From Candidatus Bathyarchaeota archaeon (GTDB taxonomy: Archaea > Thermoproteota > Bathyarchaeia > Bathyarchaeales > Bathycorpusculaceae), in assembly GCA_963733095.1 (NCBI GenBank), contig CAVTBV010000002.1:64001-128000 (forward strand): a stretch of DNA of 64,000 bases, read 5' to 3'. Made by a program: the position numbers and the translations under genes. Every line of letters begins with the position of its first letter. Position 1 is the stretch's first letter. This document shows positions 1 to 13,118 of the stretch, one piece after another. The notes below the pieces were generated by a model. The model had not been told where the DNA came from. It did no database searches and was given only the letters and a program-made list of their open reading frames with translations.

Positions 1-761
1 AGTTGAACCCGTCTGTAGGATTCAAGATTTGGTGGCGATTTAGCTTCCAAAGCTGTTCCGCGGATGGGTGTGAAAGCGAAAAGTGCAGGCAAAACCCCCA
101 TATCAACGCACTTCTGAACCACATCAACCGTCTGCTTCTCTGTTTCGCCTAGCCCAACAATTACATGGGTGCTCACGTTTCCCTCGCCAAAAACATCCAA
201 TGCCTGGCTTAGCTGACGGAATTGGTTTTGCCAAGTGTAGGCTACGCCTGCATCTTTGCCCTTGACCTTATTGAATATCTCTTCTGTTGCGGCGTCCAAA
301 GCGATACCTATCCTGTCTACACCGGCGTTTGATAGGCGGACAATATTTTCTCTGTTAAGGGGTTGGCACGAAACCGAAACTGTGACTGTTGAGCGCTTTT
401 TTATCTCTTTCACAACCGTTTCGAGTTGGATGAAGACTTCTGGGTAGTTTAGGGCTTGGATGCAGACACGCTTGATTTTGCCCTTTTTCACCGATTTAGC
501 CAATGCAGTTAGAAGCTGCAGAGTTTGGAAAGTTGGCCAAGAAACCCGAGAGAGAAGGTCGGTGTTGCTTTTGCTAGCGCGTGCTTGAGGACAGAAACCA
601 CAGTTTGCCGTGCACTTGCCTGTTCTGTACGTCATCAAGTAAGCTGTTGTCGGTTCAGCATCCAGTTTGCCTTCTAAGAGCCCGAGAACAATGGCGGTGC
701 CTAAGGAAACGCGAATCTGCTCGGGCAAGCCCGAAGGATTTGAACATGTCTGTTTTTGCAA
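1..761 (-). CDS. Radical SAM protein, biotin-synthase-related (COG2516 / LipS2-like lipoyl synthase subunit); truncated by window edge
   Basis: Hand translation from TTG at 761: LQKQTCSNPSGLPEQIRVSLGTAIVLGLL...PTTAYLMTYRTGKCTANCGFCPQAR...STHVIVGLGETE...FAFTPIRGT. It has a CxxxCxxC motif and stays open to base 1. Not in the ORF track. Confidence 0.8.
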   Translation of the reverse strand, partial: MQKQTCSNPSGLPEQIRVSLGTAIVLGLLEGKLDAEPTTAYLMTYRTGKCTANCGFCPQARASKSNTDLLSRVSWPTFQTLQLLTALAKSVKKGKIKRVCIQALNYPEVFIQLETVVKEIKKRSTVTVSVSCQPLNRENIVRLSNAGVDRIGIALDAATEEIFNKVKGKDAGVAYTWQNQFRQLSQALDVFGEGNVSTHVIVGLGETEKQTVDVVQKCVDMGVLPALFAFTPIRGTALEAKSPPNLESYRRVQ

Positions 762-801
762 TGAAGGCACCACAATTGTTGAGAAATAGTCTATTTTGGG
801 G

Positions 802-1317
802 CTATTTTAGTATAGTGTGATTTTTTCTAGTCAGGCATACTATACGGCTTGTTATTGAAATCAGAAAGAAACCCACAAATGCATACTGAACAAAAGTGAA
901 CACTGCCAGAATGGGCCAAAGCAAAGTCAACACGATGGCTATGTAGAGGGCGCTTCCGAGATAGCGTCCTACTGGGTCGTAGAATTTTTTGGCATATAAG
1001 CTTGTGATTAAGAACTGAATGAATGCAGCCACGATGAGTAGCAGCAGCCAAAGCGGATAGTTTCCGACAGAGTAAAAAATTATGAAAATTCCAATCATGA
1101 GGATGAAGTCAGTTGTGGCATCGAAGTATCCGCCAAACCTTGTGGTTGCTCTAAATTTTCTGGCGAGGTAGCCGTCGAAGAAGTCTGTGGCTGCACAAAA
1201 AGTAAGCAAACCCAAACATGCGGCTTCGTTTCCCAAGTTGTAGAGGTAAAAGAAAAGGGGTAAAGCTACGATTCGCAGAGAACTTATGAATGTGGGAAGG
1301 GCACTTTGTTTTTTCAT
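802..1317 (-). CDS. CDP-alcohol phosphatidyltransferase family protein
   Basis: TDFFDGYLARKF...FGGYFDATTD matches the DxxDGxxAR...GxxxDxxxD signature; hydrophobic. Confidence 0.9.
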   Translation of the reverse strand: MKKQSALPTFISSLRIVALPLFFYLYNLGNEAACLGLLTFCAATDFFDGYLARKFRATTRFGGYFDATTDFILMIGIFIIFYSVGNYPLWLLLLIVAAFIQFLITSLYAKKFYDPVGRYLGSALYIAIVLTLLWPILAVFTFVQYAFVGFFLISITSRIVCLTRKNHTILK

Positions 1318-1423: not shown

Positions 1424-2812
1424 TTACCGCATACACTCAAACGCAAAATCAGTCAAGCGCTCAAAAGGCCAACCCAACACTCCATAAACTGTCTTCCCCA
1501 AGTATTTTCGCCCATGAAATTGCACCTGCGCCTTCCCAATCGCAAACTTTAATTTTCCCTCACTAAAACCCGACGCATACAGCAGCTTGTGACGGATTAA
1601 GCGGTAGTTTTTGGGTTCCTCCCAATCCTCAATCGAAACGCCATGGTCCTTTACTCGTTCGTAGAGTGGGGTTCCTGGAATTGGGTAAGGCAGGGTGAAG
1701 GATAAATAGTCAAGCGGCAAATGCGACGCAAAACGTAGAGTATCGAGGACTGTTTTGTTGTTCTCGCCGGGATATCCGACTATGAAGAAGGCACCGACAT
1801 TTAGTCCCGCCGCTTTAGCTGCGTTGACGGCTCGTTGAGCTTGCGCGGTCGTGATTTTTTTCTTCATTAGACCCAAGATTGAATCGTTGCCCGATTCGAT
1901 TCCGAAGAAAACCCCGATGCAACATGCGCGTTTCATGCCCTCCGCAACTTCAGTATCCATCGTGTCAACACGCGACAAGCACTCCCAACCAATATCCAAA
2001 CGGCGCCGGACAATTTCATTGCACACATCCAAAACGTGATTGCGGTTCAATGTAAAGCAGTCATCTGCAAACCAAACACGGTCATATCCTAACGCCGCAA
2101 TTTGCTCCACTTCATCAACTATGTTGGTGACAGAACGGGTTCGCATGTCGGCGCCGAAGATGGGTCTGCTGCAGAAATCGCAGGAGAAGGGACACCCGCG
2201 CGAAGTAATCATTGATGTGATTGAGTAGCCAAAGCGGTCGCGGTAGTACTTTTGGTAGGCTTTATTATCAAACAGGTCGCGGGTTGGAAAATCTAAGTTG
2301 TTGAGGTTTTCGATAAATTGTCTGGGAGCATTTTTGATAGTGCGTTCGCCATCTTTGAAGACCAAGCCCTTGACGCCCGACAAACCTTTGTGCTGATCAA
2401 CACAGTCCGCCATCTCTAACATGGTTTGTTCACCTTCGCCCACCGCAACCACATCAAAAACACCCAGAAAACCTTCAGGCTCCCAAGAGGGCAAAGGACC
2501 ACCAACCACAAACAAAGAATCCCTCAAACCCTCATCCCTAAGAACTTGAGCTAATTCTAAAGTAGTTTTTTTCATCGAAAACATCGAATAGAACCCTACA
2601 ATGTGCGGTTTGGCGTGTTTTACGCGTTCTACGGCTTCCCTGAACTGCATAAAGGTGCAGTCGACTAACTCAACTTCAGTACCTTGTTTTTTTAGCGCGG
2701 CAGCTATATATCCTAATCCTAAGGGTGGAAAACGAAAAATAGAATTATCGTTTCCCGGATGAAAATAAGGATAAACTAAAGCAACTTTAACGGTCATTTG
2801 TTTTTTAGCCAC
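1424..2812 (-). CDS. Cobalamin-binding (class B) radical SAM enzyme
   Basis: N-terminal B12-binding domain (PPLGLGYIAA...VVGGP...GEGE); SRGCPFSCDFC cluster motif; GIESG and GYPGE. Confidence 0.9.
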   Translation of the reverse strand: MAKKQMTVKVALVYPYFHPGNDNSIFRFPPLGLGYIAAALKKQGTEVELVDCTFMQFREAVERVKHAKPHIVGFYSMFSMKKTTLELAQVLRDEGLRDSLFVVGGPLPSWEPEGFLGVFDVVAVGEGEQTMLEMADCVDQHKGLSGVKGLVFKDGERTIKNAPRQFIENLNNLDFPTRDLFDNKAYQKYYRDRFGYSITSMITSRGCPFSCDFCSRPIFGADMRTRSVTNIVDEVEQIAALGYDRVWFADDCFTLNRNHVLDVCNEIVRRRLDIGWECLSRVDTMDTEVAEGMKRACCIGVFFGIESGNDSILGLMKKKITTAQAQRAVNAAKAAGLNVGAFFIVGYPGENNKTVLDTLRFASHLPLDYLSFTLPYPIPGTPLYERVKDHGVSIEDWEEPKNYRLIRHKLLYASGFSEGKLKFAIGKAQVQFHGRKYLGKTVYGVLGWPFERLTDFAFECMR

Positions 2813-3022
2813 CGAAAAACATCGGGTATTCCAAAGGGGTCCTTAAAACTTGTCTTATTGAATAATCGTTTGTTTGCTTAAAAACCTTCTACAACTTGTC
2901 AACTGAGAGAATATTTTATTTTGCTAGAAGGTTTGTTTGGCAAAACTTTATTATTCGACTGTGAAAATTTACATTCGGTTGAAAAAAGGTGTTCATGACC
3001 TTCTAACGTACCTTGGGTTGGT

Positions 3023-3676
3023 TTGATGGTTGACTTAACCGATTTGGGTTTCTTGAAAGGTAAAATTTTTGAGGTCATAGTCTCAACCTACAACATGGAT
3101 TGGACTCCAAACGCAGCACCCATGGGCACCACAATGCAAAACCCCCAAACCATCAGCCTAAACATCTTCAATTCCTCACAAACAAGCCGCAACCTGAAAA
3201 CAAACAAATGCGGCATCATCAACTTGACAAATAATATAGAATTTTTCTATAAAGCCGCCTTCAAAGAAGCAAACCCTGATATGAAGCCACCGCAAGACTG
3301 GTTCGAGGAGGCAGAAACGGTAAACGCACCAAAACTAAGGTTGGCAGATGCAACCCTCGAAGTTACAGTAGCCGAATTAGAGCCGATTGGGACAGAGAAA
3401 ACCCGATTCTCCTGCAACGTCGAGCAAATAAATGCACGCAAGATGCTTCCGCAGGTTTACTGCCGTGCCATGCCTGCAGCCCTTGAAGCTATCCTCCACG
3501 CAACCCGATTAAAAGTCTTCGCCAAACAAGAAAAGAAGATGCAACAGGTCAGCCAGCTTTTAGGATTGATTGAAAACTGCAACGAAGTAGTAAACCGCAC
3601 GGCTCCAGATTCTGTATACTCTGCGGTTATGGCTGATTTAAGGAAAAGAACCGATTCGTGGAGCAACAGGCTTTGA
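3023..3676 (+). CDS. DUF447 family FMN-binding split-barrel protein
   Basis: EVIVSTYN...PNAAPMG...SQTSRNL...NRA-like/ALEAILHATR pattern; TTGA overlap with the downstream DHPS-like gene. Confidence 0.8.
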   Translation: MMVDLTDLGFLKGKIFEVIVSTYNMDWTPNAAPMGTTMQNPQTISLNIFNSSQTSRNLKTNKCGIINLTNNIEFFYKAAFKEANPDMKPPQDWFEEAETVNAPKLRLADATLEVTVAELEPIGTEKTRFSCNVEQINARKMLPQVYCRAMPAALEAILHATRLKVFAKQEKKMQQVSQLLGLIENCNEVVNRTAPDSVYSAVMADLRKRTDSWSNRL

Positions 3677-5235
3677 AAGTACTCTTGGTTACAGGCACGC
3701 TTGCAGAGGACACCGTTAAAGGTTACGCCAAAGAAAGTATCGTCGAAACAGAAACGTTGGCGCTCAAGATGGCCGTAGCCGCCCTTTTAACTCCACAAAA
3801 CATCACAAACGCCCTCAAAAGCGCAAAATTATCTGATTTTAACATGATTTTAATTCCTGGTTTAGTTAGGGGTGATGCCACTGTAATCTCAAAAGCGGTT
3901 GGTGTTCCAGCTTTTAAGGGTCCAAGGTATGCGGCTGACTTGCCGACTGTTCTAGATTCACTTTGCGAAATTCAACTTTCACCCCTTGTGCCAGCTGACG
4001 ATTTGTTGAGGGAAAAACTCCAGCAAAAAGCATTGGCGGAAATCAAGAAAGTAGAACAAAAACGTGAGGAACTCATCAAGAAACCTGGCAACATGGTGAT
4101 TGGAACTCTGGCAGTTGGCAAAGACTTTCCTATGAGGGTACTTGCGGAAATTGTCGATGCAGCAACGATGGATAAAGAAGCAATCCAGCAAACCGCAAAA
4201 CGCTTTGTCGCTGCAGGCGCAGACATCATCGACGTCGGCATGGTTGCAGGCGAATCTCAACCTGAAAAAGCCAAGCGTATGGTTAAGTGGGTTAAACAGG
4301 TTGTAGCCGTGCCTGTGAGCATAGATACGCTTGACCCAGCCGAAATAAAAGCAGCCGTAGAGGCAGGAGCAGACCTCGTTTTAAGCGGCGATTCAGGAAA
4401 CATTGAAGAAATAGCACCTTTCGTTTCCAAAGTAACAGTGGTCGTTATACCCACTAACCAGCAGCAAGGTTACTTCCCAAAAAAAGCTCAAAAACGTGTC
4501 ACATACCTTGAAGAAACAATAGAAAAAGCAAAAAAGTTGGGCGTGGCAAGGTGTATTGCGGATCTAATTCTTGATCCATGTGACGTTCTGGAATCTTTTG
4601 TTGCTTTCAAGGAGTTTGCGGCAAGAAATCCCGCGGTACCGCTCTTTGTAGGCGTTTCCAACGTCACTGAACTCATTGATGCAGACTCGGTGGGCGTTAA
4701 TGCTGTTCTTGCCAAATTATCCTCGGAGGCGGGTGCATGTATGCTTTTGGCTACTGAGAAAAGCGACAAAGCAAAGGGCACGGTCGCTGAAGAGGTTGCA
4801 GCCTCCAAAATGATGTTTCTTGCCAAGAAACGTGGGTCAGTTCCAAAAGACCTCGGAATAGACCTTCTTGTCCTGAAGGATAAGCGCAATCGCGAAGAGC
4901 CATACGAAAAAACTTTGGAGCAGAAAACCCGTGTTTTGCAGGCTGGGGGCAAAGAGAAGTATGCTGAATTGGATAAGGCAGGGTCTTTTAGGCTTTTTAT
5001 CGACCGCCAAGAACAAAATCTTGTGGCTGAACATTTCGCCTTAACGGATGCTGCGACTCCGACAATGATTGTTAAGGGCAAAACAGCGGAGCAGGTTTAC
5101 AGTCAGATTGTTGAGCGTGGTTTACTTTCAAAGCTTGACCATGCGGCTTACTTGGGCAGTGAGTTGGCGAAAGCCGAAATCGCCTTGCGAACAGGAAAAG
5201 AATACGTCCAAGATAAGAGTATGTTTAAGGAATAA
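3673..5235 (+). CDS. Dihydropteroate synthase-related protein (MJ0107/Orf20-like, C-terminal DUF4346)
   Basis: KVLLVTGTLA N-terminal domain; pterin-binding barrel (RVLAEIVDA, GADIIDVG, SIDT, GVSNVTELIDADSVG); C-terminal HAAYLGSELAKAEIAL...YVQD. The start is probably TTG at 3673. Confidence 0.88.
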   Translation: MKVLLVTGTLAEDTVKGYAKESIVETETLALKMAVAALLTPQNITNALKSAKLSDFNMILIPGLVRGDATVISKAVGVPAFKGPRYAADLPTVLDSLCEIQLSPLVPADDLLREKLQQKALAEIKKVEQKREELIKKPGNMVIGTLAVGKDFPMRVLAEIVDAATMDKEAIQQTAKRFVAAGADIIDVGMVAGESQPEKAKRMVKWVKQVVAVPVSIDTLDPAEIKAAVEAGADLVLSGDSGNIEEIAPFVSKVTVVVIPTNQQQGYFPKKAQKRVTYLEETIEKAKKLGVARCIADLILDPCDVLESFVAFKEFAARNPAVPLFVGVSNVTELIDADSVGVNAVLAKLSSEAGACMLLATEKSDKAKGTVAEEVAASKMMFLAKKRGSVPKDLGIDLLVLKDKRNREEPYEKTLEQKTRVLQAGGKEKYAELDKAGSFRLFIDRQEQNLVAEHFALTDAATPTMIVKGKTAEQVYSQIVERGLLSKLDHAAYLGSELAKAEIALRTGKEYVQDKSMFKE

Positions 5236-5289
5236 TCAACATCCAAGTCGTCTAAAAGCTATTAAACAATTAAAGGTAAATGCCAAGTT

Positions 5290-5608
5290 ATGTCTCGGTT
5301 ATCAAAATGGCTTGGAATAATAGTCGCTTTGAATACTGTTTTGATTTTGTTTTTTGTTTTTAACTGAATATGGAATCGGGTATGAATTGAATCGTTATCC
5401 TGGCGATTTACATTATATTTGTTGGAGTCCTTTTTTGATTCAAGATTCGCATGCTGTTATTTTTTTAAATGGTAATTGGGTGGGCGTAGGCGCCGACGTT
5501 TTAATGTTAAACCTTCCTTTCTGGTTATTCTTTGCATCAACTGCACTGAACTTGTTCTTTATCATAAAACTCTTAAGAGATAAAGAAAAACAGAAGCCTA
5601 AAAAATAG
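5290..5608 (+). pseudogene. Small membrane protein, frameshifted in a T-rich tract
   Basis: ATG at 5290 gives MSRLSKWLGIIVALNTVLILFFVFN*. The reading continues in another frame (ORF 5354..5608) and ends in a TM helix plus basic tail. Confidence 0.5.
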
Positions 5609-5640
5609 GCTTAGATTAAGCCGCAAAAGGCGAAGCGTTG

Positions 5641-6792
5641 TTATAGTTTTTTGAACTGGCTCAATCCTTCAGTGACCTTCTCTCCAAGGTAAAGGTTGCT
5701 AAAGACTGTTCCCTCACTTTCTCCGAGTCGCATAGCGTCTATGAGTTGTTTGTATTTGCCTCCAGCTAAACCATTAGCGAACACCGCGGCGCCCTCCGCT
5801 GCCTGCTTAGTTACAGCTGCTTTGCTCTCAAGAACAATAATATCCACTTTCAAACCCATTTCAGAAAAGAAACCTGAAAGCGCACCCTTCATTGCTGCCA
5901 AAAACTCAGGTATCCGCGTGAATCTTCCGCTGAGCACTATTTCCTTTGGTTTAACATTTGGCAACAGTGAGCCTACATCTTTGACTATGGCTTCCAGCAT
6001 CATGTCGTAGCCTTGTTTGGCTTGCTGTTCGGTTTTTGCCTCTTTGAGAAATTCCTCCAAAGGCTTAGAGGCATCGATTCCTGCAAAAGATGCTACTCCA
6101 CCAGCGAAGAGAAGTTGCTTGGAAAAATCGTCGGTGGCGTTGGCTACGGCGTAAGCTACTTCTGAATCCCAAAAGCCGCTGCCAAGAAACGACGGAAACC
6201 CGGCAGTACCAGCCATGGCATCGATTATTTGTCCGTTTTTAACGGCGATTGCTGAGGTGTATCCGAATCCGACTTCAACAAGAATCAAAGAAGTTTTATC
6301 ATAAGGAATTTTTAACCTTTCAGCTTGATCCTTCACTGCCAAAACAACACTTAAAACCTTGTCCGAGGTTCCCATATCAATTCTATTCGCTTTTCGATAT
6401 TTCGGCACGGTCTTTAGGTGGATGACTCCCTGAGTAAAATGCGTGTTCAAATCATCCGCGTTTCGGAGCAGTTGCATGAGTTCTCTTAGCCCGATGATTC
6501 TTAGTCGTCTTTTAATGTCAGCAACTGTAACAAAGGTTGCCGACGCAATATCCTCATCGGATGCATCCTTGGCTTTTTTGAGGTGCATTCCATAACCCGA
6601 CGGTCCCACGATGGCGTCGATTTTTCCAAATTGTTCTTGGGCTTCCCGAATTTTTTCAACCACGAGTCTAGCGCTTTTAGTTATCTCGTCTCTAGGAATA
6701 GCCACGTCAATTATGATGCTTCCGTCTTTGTCGTCGAAGCCAAAAATATCCATAGTTTTTGTTCCAGAGTCAATCCCTATGGATTTAACCAA
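5641..6792 (-). CDS. DUF1464 family protein (ASKHA/butyrate-kinase-like ATPase fold)
   Basis: IGIDSGTKT (phosphate-1), GPSGYG, RKANRIDMGTSDK, LVEVGFGYT (phosphate-2), IVLSGRF, KQAAEGAA. Confidence 0.85.
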   Translation of the reverse strand: MVKSIGIDSGTKTMDIFGFDDKDGSIIIDVAIPRDEITKSARLVVEKIREAQEQFGKIDAIVGPSGYGMHLKKAKDASDEDIASATFVTVADIKRRLRIIGLRELMQLLRNADDLNTHFTQGVIHLKTVPKYRKANRIDMGTSDKVLSVVLAVKDQAERLKIPYDKTSLILVEVGFGYTSAIAVKNGQIIDAMAGTAGFPSFLGSGFWDSEVAYAVANATDDFSKQLLFAGGVASFAGIDASKPLEEFLKEAKTEQQAKQGYDMMLEAIVKDVGSLLPNVKPKEIVLSGRFTRIPEFLAAMKGALSGFFSEMGLKVDIIVLESKAAVTKQAAEGAAVFANGLAGGKYKQLIDAMRLGESEGTVFSNLYLGEKVTEGLSQFKKL

Positions 6793-6794
6793 GA

Positions 6795-7772
6795 CTACTT
6801 GCCCCCGATGACTGCTCCAACATTGTTAGCTTTAGTGACGAAGACTTCTCCTCCGCCATTCTTCGCCAAGTATGTGCTAAGTTCCTTTGAGAGAGTTTCA
6901 GCTTCGCTTTGGTGGTCCATTATGCCATAGATTGTTGGTCCCCAAGAAGTCTGGCAAGCACAAGTGCTTCTGTGCAGCATAATTTTTATAGCCTCTTCAA
7001 CGACGGGGTGGCAGTATGTTCTGCCACATTGGTATTCATTCCAGAATTTGCCCAATTCAGAATTGAACGCTGTTAAGCCTTCTCCGAAGGATTTGAGGTC
7101 GCATTCAACAATGGAGGGTATGATTTTGACCAGTACGATTCGTGAGAGCATGTCTGAGGTTTCTTTAGGCATCAGCTTGAGGTTTCGCAGGATGTGGTCC
7201 TCGTTTTCCCTCATTTTAACGATTTTCTCTTGAGGCTCGTTTGCAATGGCGATGACAAAGTGCCAGTTGTTCGGAACGTCCTGATGGAAGATTAATGGAG
7301 GAATCATCTTTTCTCTTTCTTTAACTCGAAAACCACCTTCAACAATGAATCCGCCGACTTTGAAAGCATGAACGCCAAGGCTCGTGATGGCTCCCCGCTT
7401 CATAGCCAAGGCGATTTCTTCAGTGGTTAACTTTAATCCATACAATTTAGCTAAAGCACTCCCGATCGAAAGCGCAAGAGTTGTGTGGTATCCCATGCCC
7501 ACAAACTTTGGAATACTCTTCTTAACCTTGACTTCTGCGCCTGCTAAATCAAAAGTTTCTGCAAAACGTTTAGTGAAAATGTATGCCGCATCATCTTCCG
7601 CTTTAACTTCATCAGCTTTGGCAACTTCAATTTCAAGACACCTATCGACTGCGAAACCGACGGTTCCATACAGTCTTCCAAGGTCTCCGGTCATGTCAAA
7701 ATTTCCAGTGTGAAGATGAGCAGGGGCAACTACTTTCACTTTGTTAGTTTCTTGCATTAAGTTCCACTGCAT
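6795..7772 (-). CDS. Beta-RFAP synthase-like GHMP-fold protein, divergent paralogue
   Basis: APAHLHTG, GRLYGTVG, GGFIVEGG, QTSWGPT, ANNVGA. The GHMP loop is GMGYHTT instead of GLGSGTQ. Confidence 0.8.
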   Translation of the reverse strand: MQWNLMQETNKVKVVAPAHLHTGNFDMTGDLGRLYGTVGFAVDRCLEIEVAKADEVKAEDDAAYIFTKRFAETFDLAGAEVKVKKSIPKFVGMGYHTTLALSIGSALAKLYGLKLTTEEIALAMKRGAITSLGVHAFKVGGFIVEGGFRVKEREKMIPPLIFHQDVPNNWHFVIAIANEPQEKIVKMRENEDHILRNLKLMPKETSDMLSRIVLVKIIPSIVECDLKSFGEGLTAFNSELGKFWNEYQCGRTYCHPVVEEAIKIMLHRSTCACQTSWGPTIYGIMDHQSEAETLSKELSTYLAKNGGGEVFVTKANNVGAVIGGK

Positions 7773-7807
7773 CGCAGTGCCGTTTGCAGAATTATAAGTT
7801 TTTCGTT

Positions 7808-8779
7808 TCAGTTTTTGTAGACTCTTATTACTGCTCCCCGATTACGGACCTTGGCAACAAACACGTTCCCGCCAACGTCCCCATCGAGGAAAGCCTGAGT
7901 TTTAGCCCGAACCCCTTCAGATTCGTTGCTTTTCACTATGCCATAAACCGCAGGTCCCCAAGAACTCTGCCCAGCTCCGCAAGCTCTATTTTCAAGCATA
8001 AACCCAATAGTCTGGGCTGCTGGAGAACTTGAGAATCGTCCACCTTGGGCCTTTGCAAAACTGTCGCCCACAATGTTCTGAATCTGCGTCACGGCTGCTC
8101 CAAAATTTTCTATCTCTTTTTCAGCTAGGGCTGGTAGAAGCTTCATCATTATCAACCTGCAGATTTTGCCCACCTCTTGGGCTGGCATCGGCGGAAGTCT
8201 TTTGAACGCTACAGTTTCAGCTTCTTTTGCTAACCCCTTTTTTGTATTGGGAATTGCAACTACAAATCGCCATTCATTGGGGAAAGGTTGACGACAGATA
8301 AGTGGGGTAATCTTGTGGTTGGGATTTTGTGTGTTCTTTCCAGATTCAACAACCAATCCCCCCTGCGCGAACACAGCGGTGCCCACGCCAGACTGCGTAG
8401 TTCTCCCCAAAACGGCAGCCCATTCATGTGGCGAAGCCTTTACATCAAACAAACGTGAAATTGAAGCTGCAACAGCTAAAGCCAACTGAGTTCCAGACCC
8501 TAATCCTGCATGCTCAGGAATTACCTGTTTCACTTCAATCGCCACGTTTTCTTTTATTTTGTAGGCTTCCAAGAATCTGGCAGCTAGGTTTTGGGTTAAT
8601 TCAGCCTTTTCTCCTTTGACAGTTAACGTTTGCGACTTTTGGGCTTCGAGAATCACGTTGGGGTGATCAATGGCTACGCCTAAACCACCATAAATCCTGC
8701 CTAAATCACCGTTCAAATCTATAAGTCCCAAATGTAATCTTGCTGGAGTTTTCACGTAGATTTTAATGTTTTTTCTCAT
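7808..8779 (-). CDS. mptG: Beta-ribofuranosylaminobenzene 5'-phosphate synthase
   Basis: TPARLHLGLIDLNG, PEHAGLGSGTQLALA, SGVGTAVF.QGG, GQSSWGP, RNRGA. Confidence 0.88.
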   Translation of the reverse strand: MRKNIKIYVKTPARLHLGLIDLNGDLGRIYGGLGVAIDHPNVILEAQKSQTLTVKGEKAELTQNLAARFLEAYKIKENVAIEVKQVIPEHAGLGSGTQLALAVAASISRLFDVKASPHEWAAVLGRTTQSGVGTAVFAQGGLVVESGKNTQNPNHKITPLICRQPFPNEWRFVVAIPNTKKGLAKEAETVAFKRLPPMPAQEVGKICRLIMMKLLPALAEKEIENFGAAVTQIQNIVGDSFAKAQGGRFSSSPAAQTIGFMLENRACGAGQSSWGPAVYGIVKSNESEGVRAKTQAFLDGDVGGNVFVAKVRNRGAVIRVYKN

Positions 8780-8794
8780 GCCCTAACACCGAAA

Positions 8795-9277
8795 TTATGA
8801 CTTGGGTTTGATTTCTGATTTATCGTACTTTAGTTCAGAGAGAAGGTGAGAAACGGTTTTTTTGTAGGTAGGGTGGATGAAGTCTGGCTCAATTTCAGCC
8901 AAAGGAACCAAAACGAAGGCTCTTTCCTGAATTTTCGGATGTGGTATGTGCAAATCGTTCTCATCTACAATCTGGTCTCCGTAGAATAGGATGTCCAGGT
9001 CAATTATTCTAGGTCCGTTTCTTCCCCCTTCTTTTCTGCCCATTTTCTTTTCCGTACTTTTTAAAAAGTCAAGAAGTTCTCTTGGTTTCAATTCTGTTTC
9101 TACTTTAGCGGACCCGTTCAAGAACCAATCTTGATTTTCCAAATACATCGGCTTAGTTTCATAGAACGAGGATGTCTTGATTAGTTTTATTTTTTGTTTT
9201 AAAATTCCTAGTGCCCTGTTTATGTTTGCTTTTCTGTCTCCGATGTTGGACCCAAATGCGATGTATGCCTCAACCAT
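8795..9277 (-). CDS. folK: 6-hydroxymethyl-7,8-dihydropterin pyrophosphokinase (bacterial-type HPPK)
   Basis: AYIAFGSNIGD, SSFYETKP, QDWFLN, GPRIIDLDIL, IPHP.IQERAFVLVPL. Confidence 0.95.
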   Translation of the reverse strand: MVEAYIAFGSNIGDRKANINRALGILKQKIKLIKTSSFYETKPMYLENQDWFLNGSAKVETELKPRELLDFLKSTEKKMGRKEGGRNGPRIIDLDILFYGDQIVDENDLHIPHPKIQERAFVLVPLAEIEPDFIHPTYKKTVSHLLSELKYDKSEIKPKS

Positions 9278-9626
9278 TTCGGTCCCTTGTAATCTCAATT
9301 CCCATTTCTGGAGTTTTCCCGTATTTCTCTTTTTTTACGGCTACTGTTACTTTAAAGGTGAGGGAATTATTCAAGATGAGGGATGCAATGGTTTGTGCGA
9401 GGCTTTCTAAGAGTCTGAATTCGCCCTTTGTGACTGCGATGGTTACTTGTTCTTTGACTTGAGCGTAGTCTATGGATTTAGTTAGGTCGTCTGTTGTTCC
9501 TGCTTGGCTTAGGTCACAAAAAATTTCGATGTCTATTATTACGTTTTGTTTTTTTTCCCGTTCCTCTTTAGTAACGCCGATTGTGCAGGGTAAAACTAAA
9601 TTTTTGATTAAGACCTTATCCTTCAA
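9270..9626 (-). CDS. folB: Dihydroneopterin aldolase (bacterial-type)
   Basis: DKVLIKNL...IGV..EER...Q.VIIDIE...DDL..SIDY...F.LLESLA...V.V.K. Confidence 0.93.
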   Translation of the reverse strand: MKDKVLIKNLVLPCTIGVTKEEREKKQNVIIDIEIFCDLSQAGTTDDLTKSIDYAQVKEQVTIAVTKGEFRLLESLAQTIASLILNNSLTFKVTVAVKKEKYGKTPEMGIEITRDRNG

Positions 9627-9978
9627 AATATTCGCACCAACTTTTGGGGGTCTCCCAAACTCTGGTCTTCTCTAAGGTGACTTCATTAGGCAAATTATCT
9701 TTCATGTTTTTATAAATATACCTAGAAATGTTCTCCACGGATGGATTGCCCAATTCTTTGATATCATTAAGAAAACTGTGGTCAAGCCGTTCAGTTATCT
9801 GCCGAAGTTTTTCTTTCAGTAATCTGAGGTCAAATGAAATTCCAATCGAACCCAACTCTTTTGTAACCACGAAAACCTCAACTTTGTAGCTGTGACCATG
9901 AAGCCGCGCGCATTTTCCCTCGTAACCCTCTATTTTGTGGGCAGCGTCGAATTCTGATTCGATTCTTAGTCTGTACAT
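9616..9978 (-). CDS. queD: 6-carboxy-5,6,7,8-tetrahydropterin synthase (PTPS-I)
   Basis: FDAAH, CARLHGHSY (Cx3HGH, QueD type), LDHSFLN, NPSVENI, VWETP. Confidence 0.92.
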   Translation of the reverse strand: MYRLRIESEFDAAHKIEGYEGKCARLHGHSYKVEVFVVTKELGSIGISFDLRLLKEKLRQITERLDHSFLNDIKELGNPSVENISRYIYKNMKDNLPNEVTLEKTRVWETPKSWCEYFEG

Positions 9979-9990
9979 TTTGATCGCCGT

Positions 9991-10755
9991 CTAAAGAGTT
10001 CCTCGCCATTCAGAGTAAGCATTATGGTCGTGGATAGACTCGAAACTGACACATTTAACTGCGCAATACCTGTTGGGGTACTTTTCTCTTAGAGACTTGA
10101 CGCATTTTCTGACGACGTCTTCAACAAACCTAGCATTGTGGTGCATCTGTTCGACCAACTTCTTTTCTTCGGGACGCTTCAGGATTGAATATGTTGGGGA
10201 GCTAAAACTTTCGCTGCAAACGTTGGTTATATCTGAGAGTTCGATGCCACCTTTTGAAACATCTATCTCAACGCTTAGGTTTCCTCTTTGGTTATGAGTC
10301 AAACCGCCGCACATTTCTTTTGAACAGGGGCAGGCGAGTGCGCCATTGATAGAGATGCCAAGGGACTTGTGTTTGGTGTGCGTCGAGTATTTTGCGAACA
10401 TTTGGCCTATTCCGTTTTCTTTTTCGCCGTTTGGTCGGGTTCGCTCGAATGGAAATTCACAGAACACTTTGGTGCAACAGTCAAAATGATGTTTAGCAAG
10501 GGAGGTTTCAGAGATTTTTTCCGCCAAGTCCTGAATTGATTTTGTTTCCTCGGGAATTTCGTCGATAGACTCTGCAAACCTGCTCATATGTACTCCACGG
10601 CGATCTGAAGGCAATTTGATGTAACTGTTTATTGTAACTATGGTATGATAGCTTGTCGTGGGGCTTTTAACTACAACATATTTTCTTAAGCCTTCCACTC
10701 CAACTTTGTTTAGTTCAATCTCGTTTTCAGGCTTTTCATTTTGGACGTCTTTCAA
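9991..10755 (-). CDS. folE2: GTP cyclohydrolase IB / MptA family
   Basis: DVQ, KVGV, RGVHMSRF, ACPCS, THNQRG, LKRPEE, FVEDVVR, ESIHDHNA. Confidence 0.92.
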   Translation of the reverse strand: MKDVQNEKPENEIELNKVGVEGLRKYVVVKSPTTSYHTIVTINSYIKLPSDRRGVHMSRFAESIDEIPEETKSIQDLAEKISETSLAKHHFDCCTKVFCEFPFERTRPNGEKENGIGQMFAKYSTHTKHKSLGISINGALACPCSKEMCGGLTHNQRGNLSVEIDVSKGGIELSDITNVCSESFSSPTYSILKRPEEKKLVEQMHHNARFVEDVVRKCVKSLREKYPNRYCAVKCVSFESIHDHNAYSEWRGTL

Positions 10756-11172
10756 CTTTTTTACCTCGTTGTCCGAAAGGGATGCCTTTTTGTGTGAGAA
10801 ACATTGGTTTGTGGCAAAACTTGTGCTTTATTTCAAGCTTCAGTTTTGCGATTAGAGTAATCTATTGCTTCAATGCTTCGCTGTTGGTTTGAATATTTTT
10901 TCAAGGCTGTGTAATTTTTTACAATGCGCGGCTATAAAAGACTTTCCGCAAAAGAACAAAGTCTGAAACAAGCCCTCGCTATTAACAAATAAATGTAAAA
11001 AATGTATTGCTGCAAAAACATCTCGAAAACAGGTTAAGTATTTATCCATTTTTAGGCTTATTTTCATTATAGCACCCGTTTTTGGGTCGTTTTAACAGTT
11101 GAGGCAGGCACTTTAGGCATTAGTAAATTTTAAATACAAAATGAAGCCAATTGTACCTTTGAGGTTATTAGC

Positions 11173-11223
11173 GTGGCTAAGACTGCCAAAAAGGTAACTA
11201 AAAAGGTTAAAAAGAAAAAATAG
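11173..11223 (+). CDS. 16-aa lysine-rich micropeptide MAKTAKKVTKKVKKKK
   Basis: GTG start with a GAGGT RBS at 11161, TTTAAATA TATA about 40 nt upstream, and a T-rich terminator-like tract after the TAG. Confidence 0.55.
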   Translation: MAKTAKKVTKKVKKKK

Positions 11224-11395
11224 GGCTTTTTCAAGTTCGCCCAAACCCTCATTTTTCTTTTTTCACTAAGCGAAACTCCCAATATACCTGCTTCACAAAT
11301 TGACATAAAAGCGCTCACTTCCAACTCTTTTCTTAATGCCCACAAAATGTGCTAAAAAACCTTTATCTTACTAAAGTGTTAACCTAGATTGTACG

Positions 11396-12325
11396 GTGAA
11401 TTATTTGGAAAGCAATCCGTTAAGCATAAGTTTTGCCGGTTTGAAATTGGCGAACCCGACGATTCTGGCTTCAGGAATCTTGGGGTACTCTACTGCATCA
11501 CTTAGTCGCATGGCGAAGGGCGGTGCTGGAGCGGTAGTTACAAAATCCGTAGGCATCGAACCCCGAGTGGGTTATTCTAACCCAACGGTGGTTCAAGCTG
11601 AAGCTGGGTTGATTAACGCGATGGGTTTGCCCAATCCGGGTATCGACGTTTACGCTGAAGAAATAAAGTTTTCCAAGACCATCCTACATGTGCCCGTTAT
11701 CGTGAGTGTTTTCGGTTATTCGGCAGAAGAATATGCCACGGTCGCGAAAAAAGCGGTTAATGCAGGCGCCGATGCAATTGAACTCAACGTTTCCTGTCCG
11801 CATGTTCGCCAGACAGGTGCTGAAATCGGTCAGAGCCCAAAATTCCTCTCTGAGGTTGTGTTACAGGTTAAGGCAGCCATCAACAAACCATTGATAGTAA
11901 AGTTGTCACCAAACGTTTCAGATATTGCTGCGTTGGCTCGGACGGCTGTTGAGTCGGGGGCTGATGCGTTGACCGCAGTGAATACGCTTAAGGCAATGGC
12001 GATTGACTCTGAAACAACGCTTCCACTCCTCAGCAACGTAAAAGGCGGATTGTCGGGACCAGCAGTTAAGCCAGTCGCTTTGCGGTGCGTTTACGATATA
12101 CATGAAGCATTGAATGATATCCCCATTATCGGCTGCGGAGGAATATCAAGTTGGCAGGATGCCGTCGAGTTTTTCTTGGCGGGTGCATCTGCGGTTCAGA
12201 TTGGCACAGCAGTTGCCGTTGACGCGGAAGTTTTCCAAACCATAAATAAAGGCGTAGAAGTATATTTGAGACGAAAGCATTTTAGGAGTGTAAAAGAAAT
12301 TGTCGGCCTTGCACACCACAAATAA
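11396..12325 (+). CDS. pyrD: Dihydroorotate dehydrogenase class 1B, catalytic subunit
   Basis: NPTILASG, VVTKS, INAMGLPNPG, ELNVSCPH, KLSPNV, GGLSGP. Confidence 0.95.
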   Translation: MNYLESNPLSISFAGLKLANPTILASGILGYSTASLSRMAKGGAGAVVTKSVGIEPRVGYSNPTVVQAEAGLINAMGLPNPGIDVYAEEIKFSKTILHVPVIVSVFGYSAEEYATVAKKAVNAGADAIELNVSCPHVRQTGAEIGQSPKFLSEVVLQVKAAINKPLIVKLSPNVSDIAALARTAVESGADALTAVNTLKAMAIDSETTLPLLSNVKGGLSGPAVKPVALRCVYDIHEALNDIPIIGCGGISSWQDAVEFFLAGASAVQIGTAVAVDAEVFQTINKGVEVYLRRKHFRSVKEIVGLAHHK

Positions 12326-13118
12326 TTCTCTGCGAACAACGCAGATTGTTCGAATTCAAAATGAGAGTCCAACAGTTAAAACCTTCACGTTTACCGATAA
12401 ACTGTGCAGCAAAGCCAAGCCAGGGCAATTTTTGATGCTGTGGATTCCGGGTATAGATGAGATTCCTCTGAGCATTCTGGATGCAGGCGACAATTTGGTC
12501 TCGGTCTCTGTTAAAGCCGTTGGAGATGCAACACGGCACCTTCACAACTTGGACGCAGGGGCAACCATCGGAGTCCGTGGACCATTCGGAAATAACTTCA
12601 CGGAAAGCCGCGGTAGAGTCCTCTTAGTTGGCGGCGGAACAGGCACAGCCCCCTTGCTGTTCTTAGCAAAACAACTGGAAGCAAAAACAGAGCGGCTCTC
12701 GTTTGTAGAGGGCGCTAAAACCAAAGAAGAACTGCTCTTTGTGCATGAATTAGGCGGAATTTGTAGAGAGAAAAATCTAATCACAACAACTGAGGATGGC
12801 ACCGCGGGTTTGCAGTGCCTTGTCACCCAGCCGCTTGCCGAGCTTTTGGACAAAGAACACCTTGACATGATTTACACATGTGGTCCCGAAGTTATGGTCA
12901 AGAAAATCTTTGAAATGACTGAGCAGCGCAAGTTGCCGTTGGAAGCAAGTTTGGAGCGGCTGATGCGATGCGGGATTGGTTTGTGCGGAAGCTGCGTCAT
13001 CGGTAAGTACCGGGTTTGCAGGGATGGCCCAGTTTTTACTGCAGCGCAACTGCGCGAAGTCAAAGGAGAGTTGGGCGTTTCAAAGATTGGCTTTGACGGT
13101 TCACGCATCCCCTTTTAA
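12300..13118 (+). CDS. pyrK: Dihydroorotate dehydrogenase electron transfer subunit
   Basis: PGQF, RGPFG, GGGTGTAP, CGPE, MRCGIGLCGSC...VCRDGPVF. Confidence 0.95.
   Translation: MSALHTTNNSLRTTQIVRIQNESPTVKTFTFTDKLCSKAKPGQFLMLWIPGIDEIPLSILDAGDNLVSVSVKAVGDATRHLHNLDAGATIGVRGPFGNNFTESRGRVLLVGGGTGTAPLLFLAKQLEAKTERLSFVEGAKTKEELLFVHELGGICREKNLITTTEDGTAGLQCLVTQPLAELLDKEHLDMIYTCGPEVMVKKIFEMTEQRKLPLEASLERLMRCGIGLCGSCVIGKYRVCRDGPVFTAAQLREVKGELGVSKIGFDGSRIPF

Follow-up and report, generated by a model that had tools for sequence, protein, structure and literature searches.

The DNA analyzed here (referred to as the window) is a stretch of 64,000 nucleotides from Candidatus Bathyarchaeota archaeon (GCA_963733095.1, contig CAVTBV010000002.1, positions 64,001 to 128,000), and this work concerns nine genes located at its positions 3023 to 10755. 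On balance, we favor the view that this region forms a supercluster devoted to the biosynthesis of a methanopterin-type (APDR-containing) pterin cofactor, in which two adjacent genes, encoding a DUF1464 protein and a second MptG-type protein, here referred to as MptG', would form a module for the arylamine arm of the cofactor. Methanogenesis, anaerobic methane oxidation, and archaeal acetogenesis all use methanopterin-type cofactors as carriers of C1 units, and a modified form is found in most Thermoproteota. The nine genes are as follows.

3023 to 3676, plus strand: DUF447 protein, a putative flavin mononucleotide (FMN) split-barrel enzyme of 217 amino acids (PF04289, E value of 1.9e-16)
3658 to 5235, plus strand: dihydropteroate synthase (DHPS)-like protein of the TIGR00284 (MJ0107) type, 525 amino acids (TIGR00284, 410.1 bits; cutoff, 256.65)
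5641 to 6792, minus strand: DUF1464 protein of type A, a predicted ATPase or kinase of the acetate and sugar kinase/Hsc70/actin (ASKHA) fold (PF07318, 297.8 bits; cutoff, 23.5)
6795 to 7772, minus strand: MptG', a clade II paralogue of beta-ribofuranosylaminobenzene 5'-phosphate (beta-RFA-P) synthase, or beta-RFAP synthase (TIGR00144, 150.2 bits; cutoff, 113.5)
7808 to 8779, minus strand: MptG, clade I of the beta-RFAP synthase family (TIGR00144, 221.3 bits; cutoff, 113.5)
8795 to 9298, minus strand: FolK, hydroxymethyldihydropterin pyrophosphokinase (HPPK; TIGR01498, 148 bits; cutoff, 54)
9270 to 9626, minus strand: FolB-family dihydroneopterin aldolase (PF02152, 97 bits; TIGR00526, 90.5 bits)
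9616 to 9978, minus strand: QueD/pyruvoyltetrahydropterin synthase (PTPS)-family protein (PF01242, 130 bits; TIGR03367, 94.7 bits; cutoff, 89.25)
9991 to 10755, minus strand: GTP cyclohydrolase IB (GCYH-IB) of the FolE2/MptA family (PF02649, 208 bits)

An original prediction, made from the sequence alone, had described these nine genes as two convergent operons, and this description held, with coordinates and family profiles in agreement and family matches far beyond chance. On the plus strand, the DUF447 and DHPS-like genes overlap by 19 nucleotides; a 405-nucleotide spacer (5236 to 5640) follows. The seven minus-strand genes are arranged head to tail between 10755 and 5641, in the order GCYH-IB cyclohydrolase, QueD/PTPS, FolB, FolK, MptG, MptG', and DUF1464, and since no gap or overlap between them exceeds 35 nucleotides, we treat them as one operon. 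A promoter and terminator scan of positions 2700 to 11500, for which the promoter model was a bacterial one, returned sites no more commonly than in shuffled sequence.

Some of the family assignments are firmer than others. The DHPS-like protein contains DUF6513, Pterin_bind, and PterinBD-DUF4346 domains and belongs to TIGR00284, a family that matched in seven of our control genomes and was over the cutoff in three of them; Methanocaldococcus jannaschii, Sulfolobus acidocaldarius, and Methanosarcina acetivorans are among the seven. The cyclohydrolase scores below both equivalog cutoffs (MptA TIGR00294, 185.7 bits against 220; FolE2 NF010200, 158.6 bits against 215) and matches only the shared Pfam GCHY-1 family, so that it may belong to either subfamily. 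FolB is slightly below the cutoff of its equivalog TIGR00525 (70.5 bits against 72.15). To judge from its sequence, the QueD/PTPS-family protein may be either a 6-carboxytetrahydropterin synthase or a PTPS-III-like bypass of FolB; QueD-like genes turn up repeatedly in related pterin clusters. MptG and MptG' both exceed the TIGR00144 subfamily cutoff of 113.5 bits, and neither reaches the cutoff of 328 bits for the equivalog NF040726 (252 bits for MptG and 165.9 bits for MptG').

The host genome, which is 95% complete, encodes Mch and two copies of Ftr, enzymes of the tetrahydromethanopterin (H4MPT) type, and in it neither FolD nor Mer was found over the family cutoff. This set of enzymes makes an H4MPT-type carrier plausible in this organism. 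The assignment to Bathyarchaeia agrees with the names borne by close homologues in public sources ("Candidatus Bathyarchaeota/Bathyarchaeia archaeon").

DUF447, DUF1464, and MptG' across genomes

The original prediction had tied DUF447, DUF1464, and MptG', which were left over once the other genes had been given a step, to the pterin pathway. Across an even sample of 301 Thermoproteota genomes (MptG family at an E value of ≤1e-15, DUF447 at ≤1e-6), the MptG family was found in 110, DUF447 in 87, and DUF1464 in 81 genomes; four DUF1464 rows (three with E values of 1e-8 to 1e-10 and one fragment with stops) were dropped, leaving 77. An MptG-family gene is present in 76 of these 77 DUF1464 carriers and in 86 of the 87 DUF447 carriers, the sole exception in both cases being a single genome of 76% completeness. 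In 35 of the 77 genomes, spread over 11 of 18 GTDB families, no more than 3 kb separate DUF1464 from an MptG-family gene, and DUF447 has such a gene within 1 kb in 34 and within 10 kb in 54 of its 87 carriers. DUF1464 is present in every one of the 15 genomes that have at least two MptG-family genes, and it is near-universal in several families (10/10, 6/6, and 5/5 genomes).

Scanning one genome per species with the family profile gave 79 DUF1464 loci, which were then compared with the window proteins by tblastn. In 33 of these, MptG' is directly upstream of DUF1464, in genomes that include Bathyarchaeota, Thermococcus, Methanophagales (ANME-1), Methanosarcinales, Archaeoglobales, Altiarchaeota, Desulfurococcales, Thermofilaceae, and Nitrososphaerota; other cluster genes are nearby in 12 loci, and in 34 none of the cluster genes of the window was found beside DUF1464 at an E value of ≤1e-6. 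Several bacterial loci among these 12, from Caldisericota, Chloroflexota, and a deltaproteobacterial genome, hold most or all of a DUF447-MptG-FolK-FolE2-(QueD)-DHPS-like-DUF1464 set. In one Thermoproteota family, DUF1464 adjoins the archaeal dihydroneopterin aldolase (PF04038), and at one locus (L055), DUF447 directly precedes MptG'-DUF1464. In many lineages, bacteria among them, DUF447, DUF1464, and MptG' thus occur together with, and lie close to, pterin and MptG genes. This part of the original prediction is borne out by co-occurrence and adjacency alike, while the exact late steps that it assigned to the three genes are not.

The two MptG-type proteins of the window belong to different branches of the family. 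A tree of 60 MptG-family proteins separates into two clades with 100% SH-aLRT support. Clade I contains the MptG of the window, the MptG proteins of the bacterial clusters, and the second copies of Thermococcus, Archaeoglobales, Methanosarcinales, ANME-1, and Altiarchaeales. Clade II corresponds to MptG', and 34 of its 35 members from outside the window adjoin DUF1464. As these loci had first been gathered starting from DUF1464, which introduces an ascertainment bias, the test was repeated starting from MptG'. In this search, 77 of 79 loci were of the MptG' type and 71 of the 77 have DUF1464 directly downstream; of the remainder, four end at a contig edge and two have DUF1464 at a distance of 1.3 or 3.2 kb. 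By its sequence, MptG' is a separate, old clade. All five diverse archaea with MptG'-DUF1464 that were checked have a clade I MptG elsewhere in the genome, indicating that the pair is an addition to MptG and not a replacement. In three genomes of the genus of the host, the main MptG is found as two adjacent half-length open reading frames (ORFs; G003:C1:1346678-1347609, G004:C13:14520-15474, and G005:C16:36593-37478), which could reflect a natural split, a frameshift, or an assembly error.

At the residue level, D26, R33, and the GxG..T phosphate loop (G92/G94/T97) of MptG' are invariant across 23 sequences. D26 and R33 are the equivalents of D19 and R26 of MTH0830, which matter for para-aminobenzoate (pABA) binding according to the mutagenesis in PMC6787355; paralogue groups of RFAP synthase, including the two copies of Methanosarcina, are also already described there. 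Clade I likewise conserves the Arg and the phosphate loop, the MptG of the window has an Asp seven residues before the Arg, and MptG' keeps nearly all invariant residues of clade I. About ten positions of MptG' are fixed differently from clade I, among them H19 (Arg in clade I, at the start of the N-terminal motif), N24, T37, F40, N237, W244, and C273; these changes include Trp for Phe and Cys for Gly. On these residues, MptG' resembles a C-ribosyltransferase whose acceptor pocket has changed, with no sign of a switch to O-ribosylation.

How dispensable the pair is can be seen among close relatives. We surveyed 41 genomes, namely, 25 of the genus including the host genome and 16 belonging to other families of the same order. 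Nine of the 41 have DUF1464, eight of them in the genus and one in another family, and a second MptG paralogue (139 to 151 bits) was found in exactly the same genomes, adjoining DUF1464; in the ninth, only a fragment of MptG' is visible at a contig edge. In one of the genus genomes (G001:C5:66805-67885, L011/L012), DUF1464 is split over two frames with an internal TAA, next to an intact MptG'. DUF447 is present in 24 of the 41 genomes and in 22 of the 25 of the genus, and the three genus genomes in which it was not found are 91%, 58%, and 65% complete. In four checked genomes without MptG'-DUF1464 (three of the genus and one of the same order), DUF447, MptG, and the DHPS-like gene form a compact trio, with folE2-queD-folB-folK not found within 8 to 10 kb. 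Since the trio is retained where the pair is missing, we take the trio to be the conserved core and MptG'-DUF1464 to be an accessory module.

These observations bear on the specific roles given in the original prediction, according to which DUF447 reduces the ring to ribitol, MptG' adds a second ribosyl phosphate, and DUF1464 performs an ATP-dependent capping, such that the locus would encode a near-complete route. The ties of all three genes to MptG and pterin genes by neighborhood and co-occurrence agree with this proposal, as do the PRPP (phosphoribosyl pyrophosphate)-type phosphate loop kept by MptG' and the full ASKHA nucleotide-binding motifs of DUF1464, and about seven methanopterin enzymes were without an assignment as of 2011, as stated in PMC3087415. 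However, a one-to-one match with three late steps is not supported: the pair is found in 8 of 25 genus genomes and absent from the other 17, although four checked genomes keep the trio without it and DUF447 is so widespread in the genus. MptG' also retains the Asp and Arg for binding an aryl acid, and DUF1464 pairs with the sole MptG of many genomes and with that of bacterial clusters. A CitG-like gene outside the window, described below, is a better candidate for the late steps; it occurs in the four archaeal controls that have MptG and lies near DUF447 and DUF1464 in other genomes. We consider this assignment of the three genes very improbable.

A different possibility is that MptG'-DUF1464 makes a C-ribosylated aromatic compound that is not a pterin and that the pair sits in the cluster through shared precursors (PRPP and aryl acids) or regulation. 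Outside Bathyarchaeia, the pair is mostly alone among unrelated neighbors, a clade I MptG was always present alongside it where checked, the residues peculiar to MptG' hint at an altered acceptor pocket, and among the relatives of MptG, ForT-type enzymes make C-nucleoside antibiotics (PDB 6yqq and 8ap0). However, type B DUF1464 proteins (see below) occur within complete pterin clusters and, in ammonia-oxidizer-like genomes, beside the archaeal dihydroneopterin aldolase; DUF447 directly precedes the pair at L055; nearly every DUF1464 carrier has an MptG-family gene (76/77); and the mutual exclusion with marker 12, to which we turn next, points to a function that methanogens need. A non-pterin product is therefore improbable in our view.

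DUF1464 and methanogenesis marker 12

The DUF1464 protein was assigned to its family by profile score, and its AlphaFold2 model (pLDDT of 95.7) has an ASKHA fold. In a Foldseek search, butyrate, acetate, and propionate kinases ranked at the top, followed by ROK and GlcNAc kinases; the matches to the carboxylate kinases have E values of 1e-14 to 1e-11, TM scores of 0.57 to 0.65, and identities of 12 to 17%. Searching solved structures with the sequence gave no significant match (best E value of 0.041). The protein carries all the nucleotide-binding motifs of an ASKHA ATPase. HgdC-type activators, which are ASKHA proteins with a bridging 4Fe-4S cluster, need cysteines to bind the cluster. No invariant or near-invariant Cys was present among 50 DUF1464 sequences, and an ATP-dependent Fe-S activator of the HgdC/BcrAD type was thereby ruled out. 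A role as a substitute for HPPK was likewise discarded, as FolK is encoded in the same clusters.

A FastTree phylogeny of 105 DUF1464 rows contains a type A clade with 100% support that matches clade II of MptG, and 35 of its 43 members from outside the window follow MptG'. The remaining proteins, type B, include those beside a clade I MptG and those in the bacterial clusters. At three loci (L061, L066, and L068), MptG' is followed by two tandem DUF1464 paralogues, one of type A and one of type B. From these sequence relationships, it seems that an MptG-type enzyme underwent duplication and divergence jointly with its DUF1464 partner, and this co-diversification suggests a product or substrate of the MptG-type enzyme as the target of DUF1464. 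Moreover, an ordinary MptG pairs with DUF1464 in genomes that hold only one MptG-family gene, from which it follows that the role of DUF1464 goes with the MptG-type reaction and not with a second ribosylation.

Our preferred reading is that DUF1464 spends ATP on the product of an MptG-type enzyme. According to PMC3261824, which cites White 2011, beta-RFSA-P is formed from phosphorylated beta-RFH-P and is converted to beta-RFA-P by PurB; in this description, PurB is the only enzyme tied to this part of the route. As the likeliest reaction, we tentatively propose that DUF1464 phosphorylates beta-RFH-P before its aspartate-dependent amination to beta-RFA-P, a specific assignment that we hold to be somewhat doubtful. 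If DUF1464 were a kinase for what an MptG-type enzyme directly releases, this would account for the adjacency of the two genes, their co-divergence, the fold of DUF1464, and its dispensability where pABA is available.

The only named family touched by DUF1464 is TIGR03281, methanogenesis marker 12. With 21.8 bits against a cutoff of 180.85, DUF1464 is not a member of this family and is a homologue by profile-profile comparison only, which aligned the two over 302 columns, that is, full length (hhalign probability of 96.1%, E value of 3.3e-9). Their distribution is complementary. Among 101 genomes of the class with Methanoperedens, for which set no completeness figures were at hand, marker 12 is present in 98, DUF1464 in two (G337 and G395), and neither in one; the genomes without marker 12 are thus the two DUF1464 carriers and one genome of 0.8 Mb, a pattern of mutual exclusion. 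No marker 12 over the cutoff was found in five DUF1464-bearing genomes from Methanosarcinales, ANME-1, Methanoperedenaceae, Methanocellales, and Archaeoglobales. In the set of 14 control genomes, S. acidocaldarius was the only one with DUF1464, and M. jannaschii and M. acetivorans were the only ones with marker 12; MptG, DUF447, and TIGR00284 are present in all three. In the four marker 12 loci that were viewed (with about 1.5 kb of flanking DNA per side), no MptG was present.

This pattern suggests that DUF1464 and marker 12 are functional counterparts, and the presence of marker 12 in methanogens removes the objection that these organisms make methanopterin without DUF1464. Marker 12 is given no function in the paper on it that we consulted, and our literature search returned no paper tying DUF1464 to pterins. 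Going further, DUF1464 and marker 12 could be branches of one family that activates the MptG product by phosphorylation of beta-RFH-P, with MptG' as a dedicated partner of the hydroxybenzoate type; we rate this extended version as unlikely. If it were true, a "methanogenesis marker" would gain a function and one of the oldest gaps of the pathway would be closed. The exclusion itself ties a methanogen signature protein to cofactor synthesis.

A number of points weigh against the arylamine-arm role of DUF1464 and, more generally, against a uniform gene set. With TM scores around 0.6 and 12 to 17% identity, the resemblance to carboxylate kinases says little about the substrate. Among the neighbors scanned, no aspartate ligase or PurB-like gene was found beside DUF1464. 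Seventeen of the 25 genus genomes are without DUF1464, and marker 12 was over the cutoff in none of the 41 relatives, which means that the step is dispensable or replaced in these 17; the absence of DUF1464 there would fit a choice between pABA and hydroxybenzoate. M. acetivorans has two RFAP-synthase paralogues according to PMC6787355, and in our control genome search, it was without DUF1464. In the 301-genome sample, 19 of the 77 DUF1464 carriers have no DUF447 match at an E value of ≤1e-6, and 29 genomes have MptG and DUF447 without DUF1464. Finally, related genomes are not independent, and the counts given here describe a pattern and overstate its statistical weight.

DUF1464 might instead serve in salvage or repair, as a kinase for aryl-ribosides that have lost their phosphate, or it might assist MptG-type enzymes at the expense of ATP, in their assembly or regulation. 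A patchy distribution, with a gene that is dispensable within the genus and broken in one genome, would be in keeping with such an accessory function, and co-diversification with MptG is expected if DUF1464 recognizes its partner or the product of its partner. Its near-universal presence in several families speaks against this, and marker 12 in 98 of 101 Methanoperedens-class genomes fits a core step better. We regard a salvage or helper function as unlikely to be the explanation and retain, as the preferred reading, an ATP-dependent step on the MptG-type product.

A proposed pathway and its late steps

Based on family membership, the first steps would proceed as follows. The FolE2/MptA-family cyclohydrolase, FolB and/or QueD/PTPS, and FolK would provide 6-hydroxymethyl-dihydropterin diphosphate; MptG would convert PRPP and a para-substituted benzoate to an aryl-C-ribosyl 5'-phosphate; and the TIGR00284 DHPS-like protein would couple the two. 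DUF447 may then carry out a flavin-dependent step right after coupling. MptG'-DUF1464 would be an old, self-contained two-gene module and a second entry into the arylamine arm, with no part in finishing the side chain. Within it, MptG' would most plausibly C-ribosylate an alternative aryl acid, 4-hydroxybenzoate, and DUF1464, as an ASKHA enzyme resembling acetate and butyrate kinases, would spend ATP on the MptG-type product.

The N-terminal domain of DUF447 is recognized by PF04289 (60.4 bits; cutoff, 24), and its C-terminal domain scores below the cutoff of PF20766 (18.1 bits against 24.8). Close homologues have weak matches to Flavin_Reduct and PNPOx-like Pfam families, an indirect sign of an FMN-binding split-barrel fold. 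The solved DUF447 structures presumably bind FMN. By sequence, the protein is related to the structural-genomics entries PDB 2nr4, 2iml, and 2ptf. A database homologue is identical over its full 216 amino acids, against the 217 called here, which suggests a start one codon later. Given its location next to MptG and the DHPS-like gene, DUF447 is a reasonable candidate for the reduction of the ribofuranosyl to the ribityl moiety, and the opening and reduction of the ribofuranosyl ring is, to our mind, nearly as probable as not to be its actual step. The orf7 product of Methylobacterium may be a DUF447 protein, but the bacterial DUF447 scan returned no methylotrophs. No paper tying DUF447 to pterins was found in our literature search, and older pathway papers that lay outside it may hold earlier predictions.

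The later steps, that is, addition of the second ribose and capping, are more likely to be encoded elsewhere, for example, by a CitG-like gene near mch. In the cluster itself, no gene for capping, for pterin reduction, or for an MJ0619-type methylase was seen, and the expectation of a near-complete route does not hold in this respect. The CitG-like gene is located 4.3 kb from mch on another contig of the host genome. At this locus (G000 C8:72206-79340; L135 8183-15341), four ORFs without a Pfam or NCBIfam match (200, 420, 438, and 237 amino acids) come after mch, and next are the CitG-like gene and an unmatched ORF that is cut by the contig end. The CitG reaction creates an alpha-ribosyl O-glycoside bearing a 5-triphosphate.

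The CitG-like protein is far below the cutoffs for true CitG or MdcB. In the controls, its family is present in Escherichia coli and in the same four archaea as MptG, and in the Thermoproteota sample, it was found in 139 of 301 genomes, against 110 for MptG. In at least 19 genomes from four families, no more than about 420 bp separate a CitG-like gene from DUF447. One Thermoproteota family has it some 0.9 kb away from DUF1464 in 10 of 10 genomes, and four of the five loci of this family scanned with Pfam have a nucleotidyltransferase-domain gene between the two. At five loci (L013, L014, L016, L022, and L037), a short DUF1464 of about 300 amino acids is part of a run with a CitG-like gene and a gene of roughly 300 amino acids, flanked by unmatched ORFs; at three of the four of these loci that were scanned, the latter gene matched a nucleotidyltransferase domain, and the ORF layout at L014 equals that at L013. 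The chemistry and the genomic context of the CitG-like family would, in our assessment, fit the second ribose and the phosphodiester cap better than those of the clade II MptG. We also considered orf17 as a CitG-like gene, which is ruled out because this gene is HisA/HisF-like and is needed for methylofuran and not for H4MPT (PMC8141765).

The proposed route shares its logic with that of methanogens (MptA/B/D/E and MptG, represented by MJ1427, AF2089, and MTH0830), in which a pterin diphosphate is joined to an aryl-C-ribosyl phosphate made by MptG, and a further likeness is the presence of H4MPT-type Mch and Ftr in the host. In contrast to methanogens, the pterin arm encoded in the window employs bacterial-type FolB and FolK, the coupling enzyme is of the TIGR00284 type, and the cluster has a second MptG clade with DUF1464 where methanogens carry marker 12. 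With other GHMP-fold C-glycoside synthases of the beta-RFAP synthase/ForT family, MptG and MptG' share TIGR00144, the Asp, the Arg, and the phosphate loop; MptG' differs by its own clade, its fixed changes, and the DUF1464 gene nearly always next to it. DUF1464 and marker 12 are both uncharacterized full-length homologues that exclude each other in the 101 genomes, and acetate, propionate, and butyrate kinases are the closest structural matches of the DUF1464 model at 12 to 17% identity. The CitG/CitX system (triphosphoribosyl-dephospho-CoA synthase and transferase) provides the comparison for the CitG-like gene near mch, DUF447, or DUF1464.

For decades, no gene has been available for several steps of the biosynthesis of these cofactors. 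Set against the roughly seven proteins of methanopterin synthesis that a 2011 review (PMC3087415) counts as unknown, the present analysis names candidates: DUF447 for a step after coupling, DUF1464/marker 12 for a reaction that spends ATP on the product of MptG, the second clade of MptG proteins, and a CitG-like protein for the second ribose. Such enzymes would be possible targets of inhibitors for methane mitigation, as RFAP synthase already is.

Genes flanking the cluster

One flanking gene may be a further member of the cluster.

1424 to 2812, minus strand: B12-binding radical SAM methyltransferase-like gene (B12-binding and Radical_SAM domains), possible cluster member

A full-length copy adjoins DUF447 at the loci of three close relatives (L044 to L046); L139 has a match to a short fragment only, and no link was seen outside the genus. 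From its sequence and position, it is possible, if weakly indicated, that this gene belongs to the cluster and encodes a pterin C-methylase. Its identity with the MJ0619 pterin methylase is not supported, since its best NCBIfam matches are other class B methylases, all below the cutoff, and since it adjoins DUF447 in close relatives only; MJ0619 itself is HemN-like and of a different class. The other flanking genes are seemingly unrelated to the cluster. They comprise a LipS2-type lipoyl synthase gene (3 to 773, minus strand) and a CDP-alcohol phosphatidyltransferase gene (802 to 1317, minus strand) on one side and, on the other, pyrD with the gene for an electron-transfer subunit (11396 to 13118, plus strand) and an Lhr-type helicase gene (14306 to 17218, plus strand).

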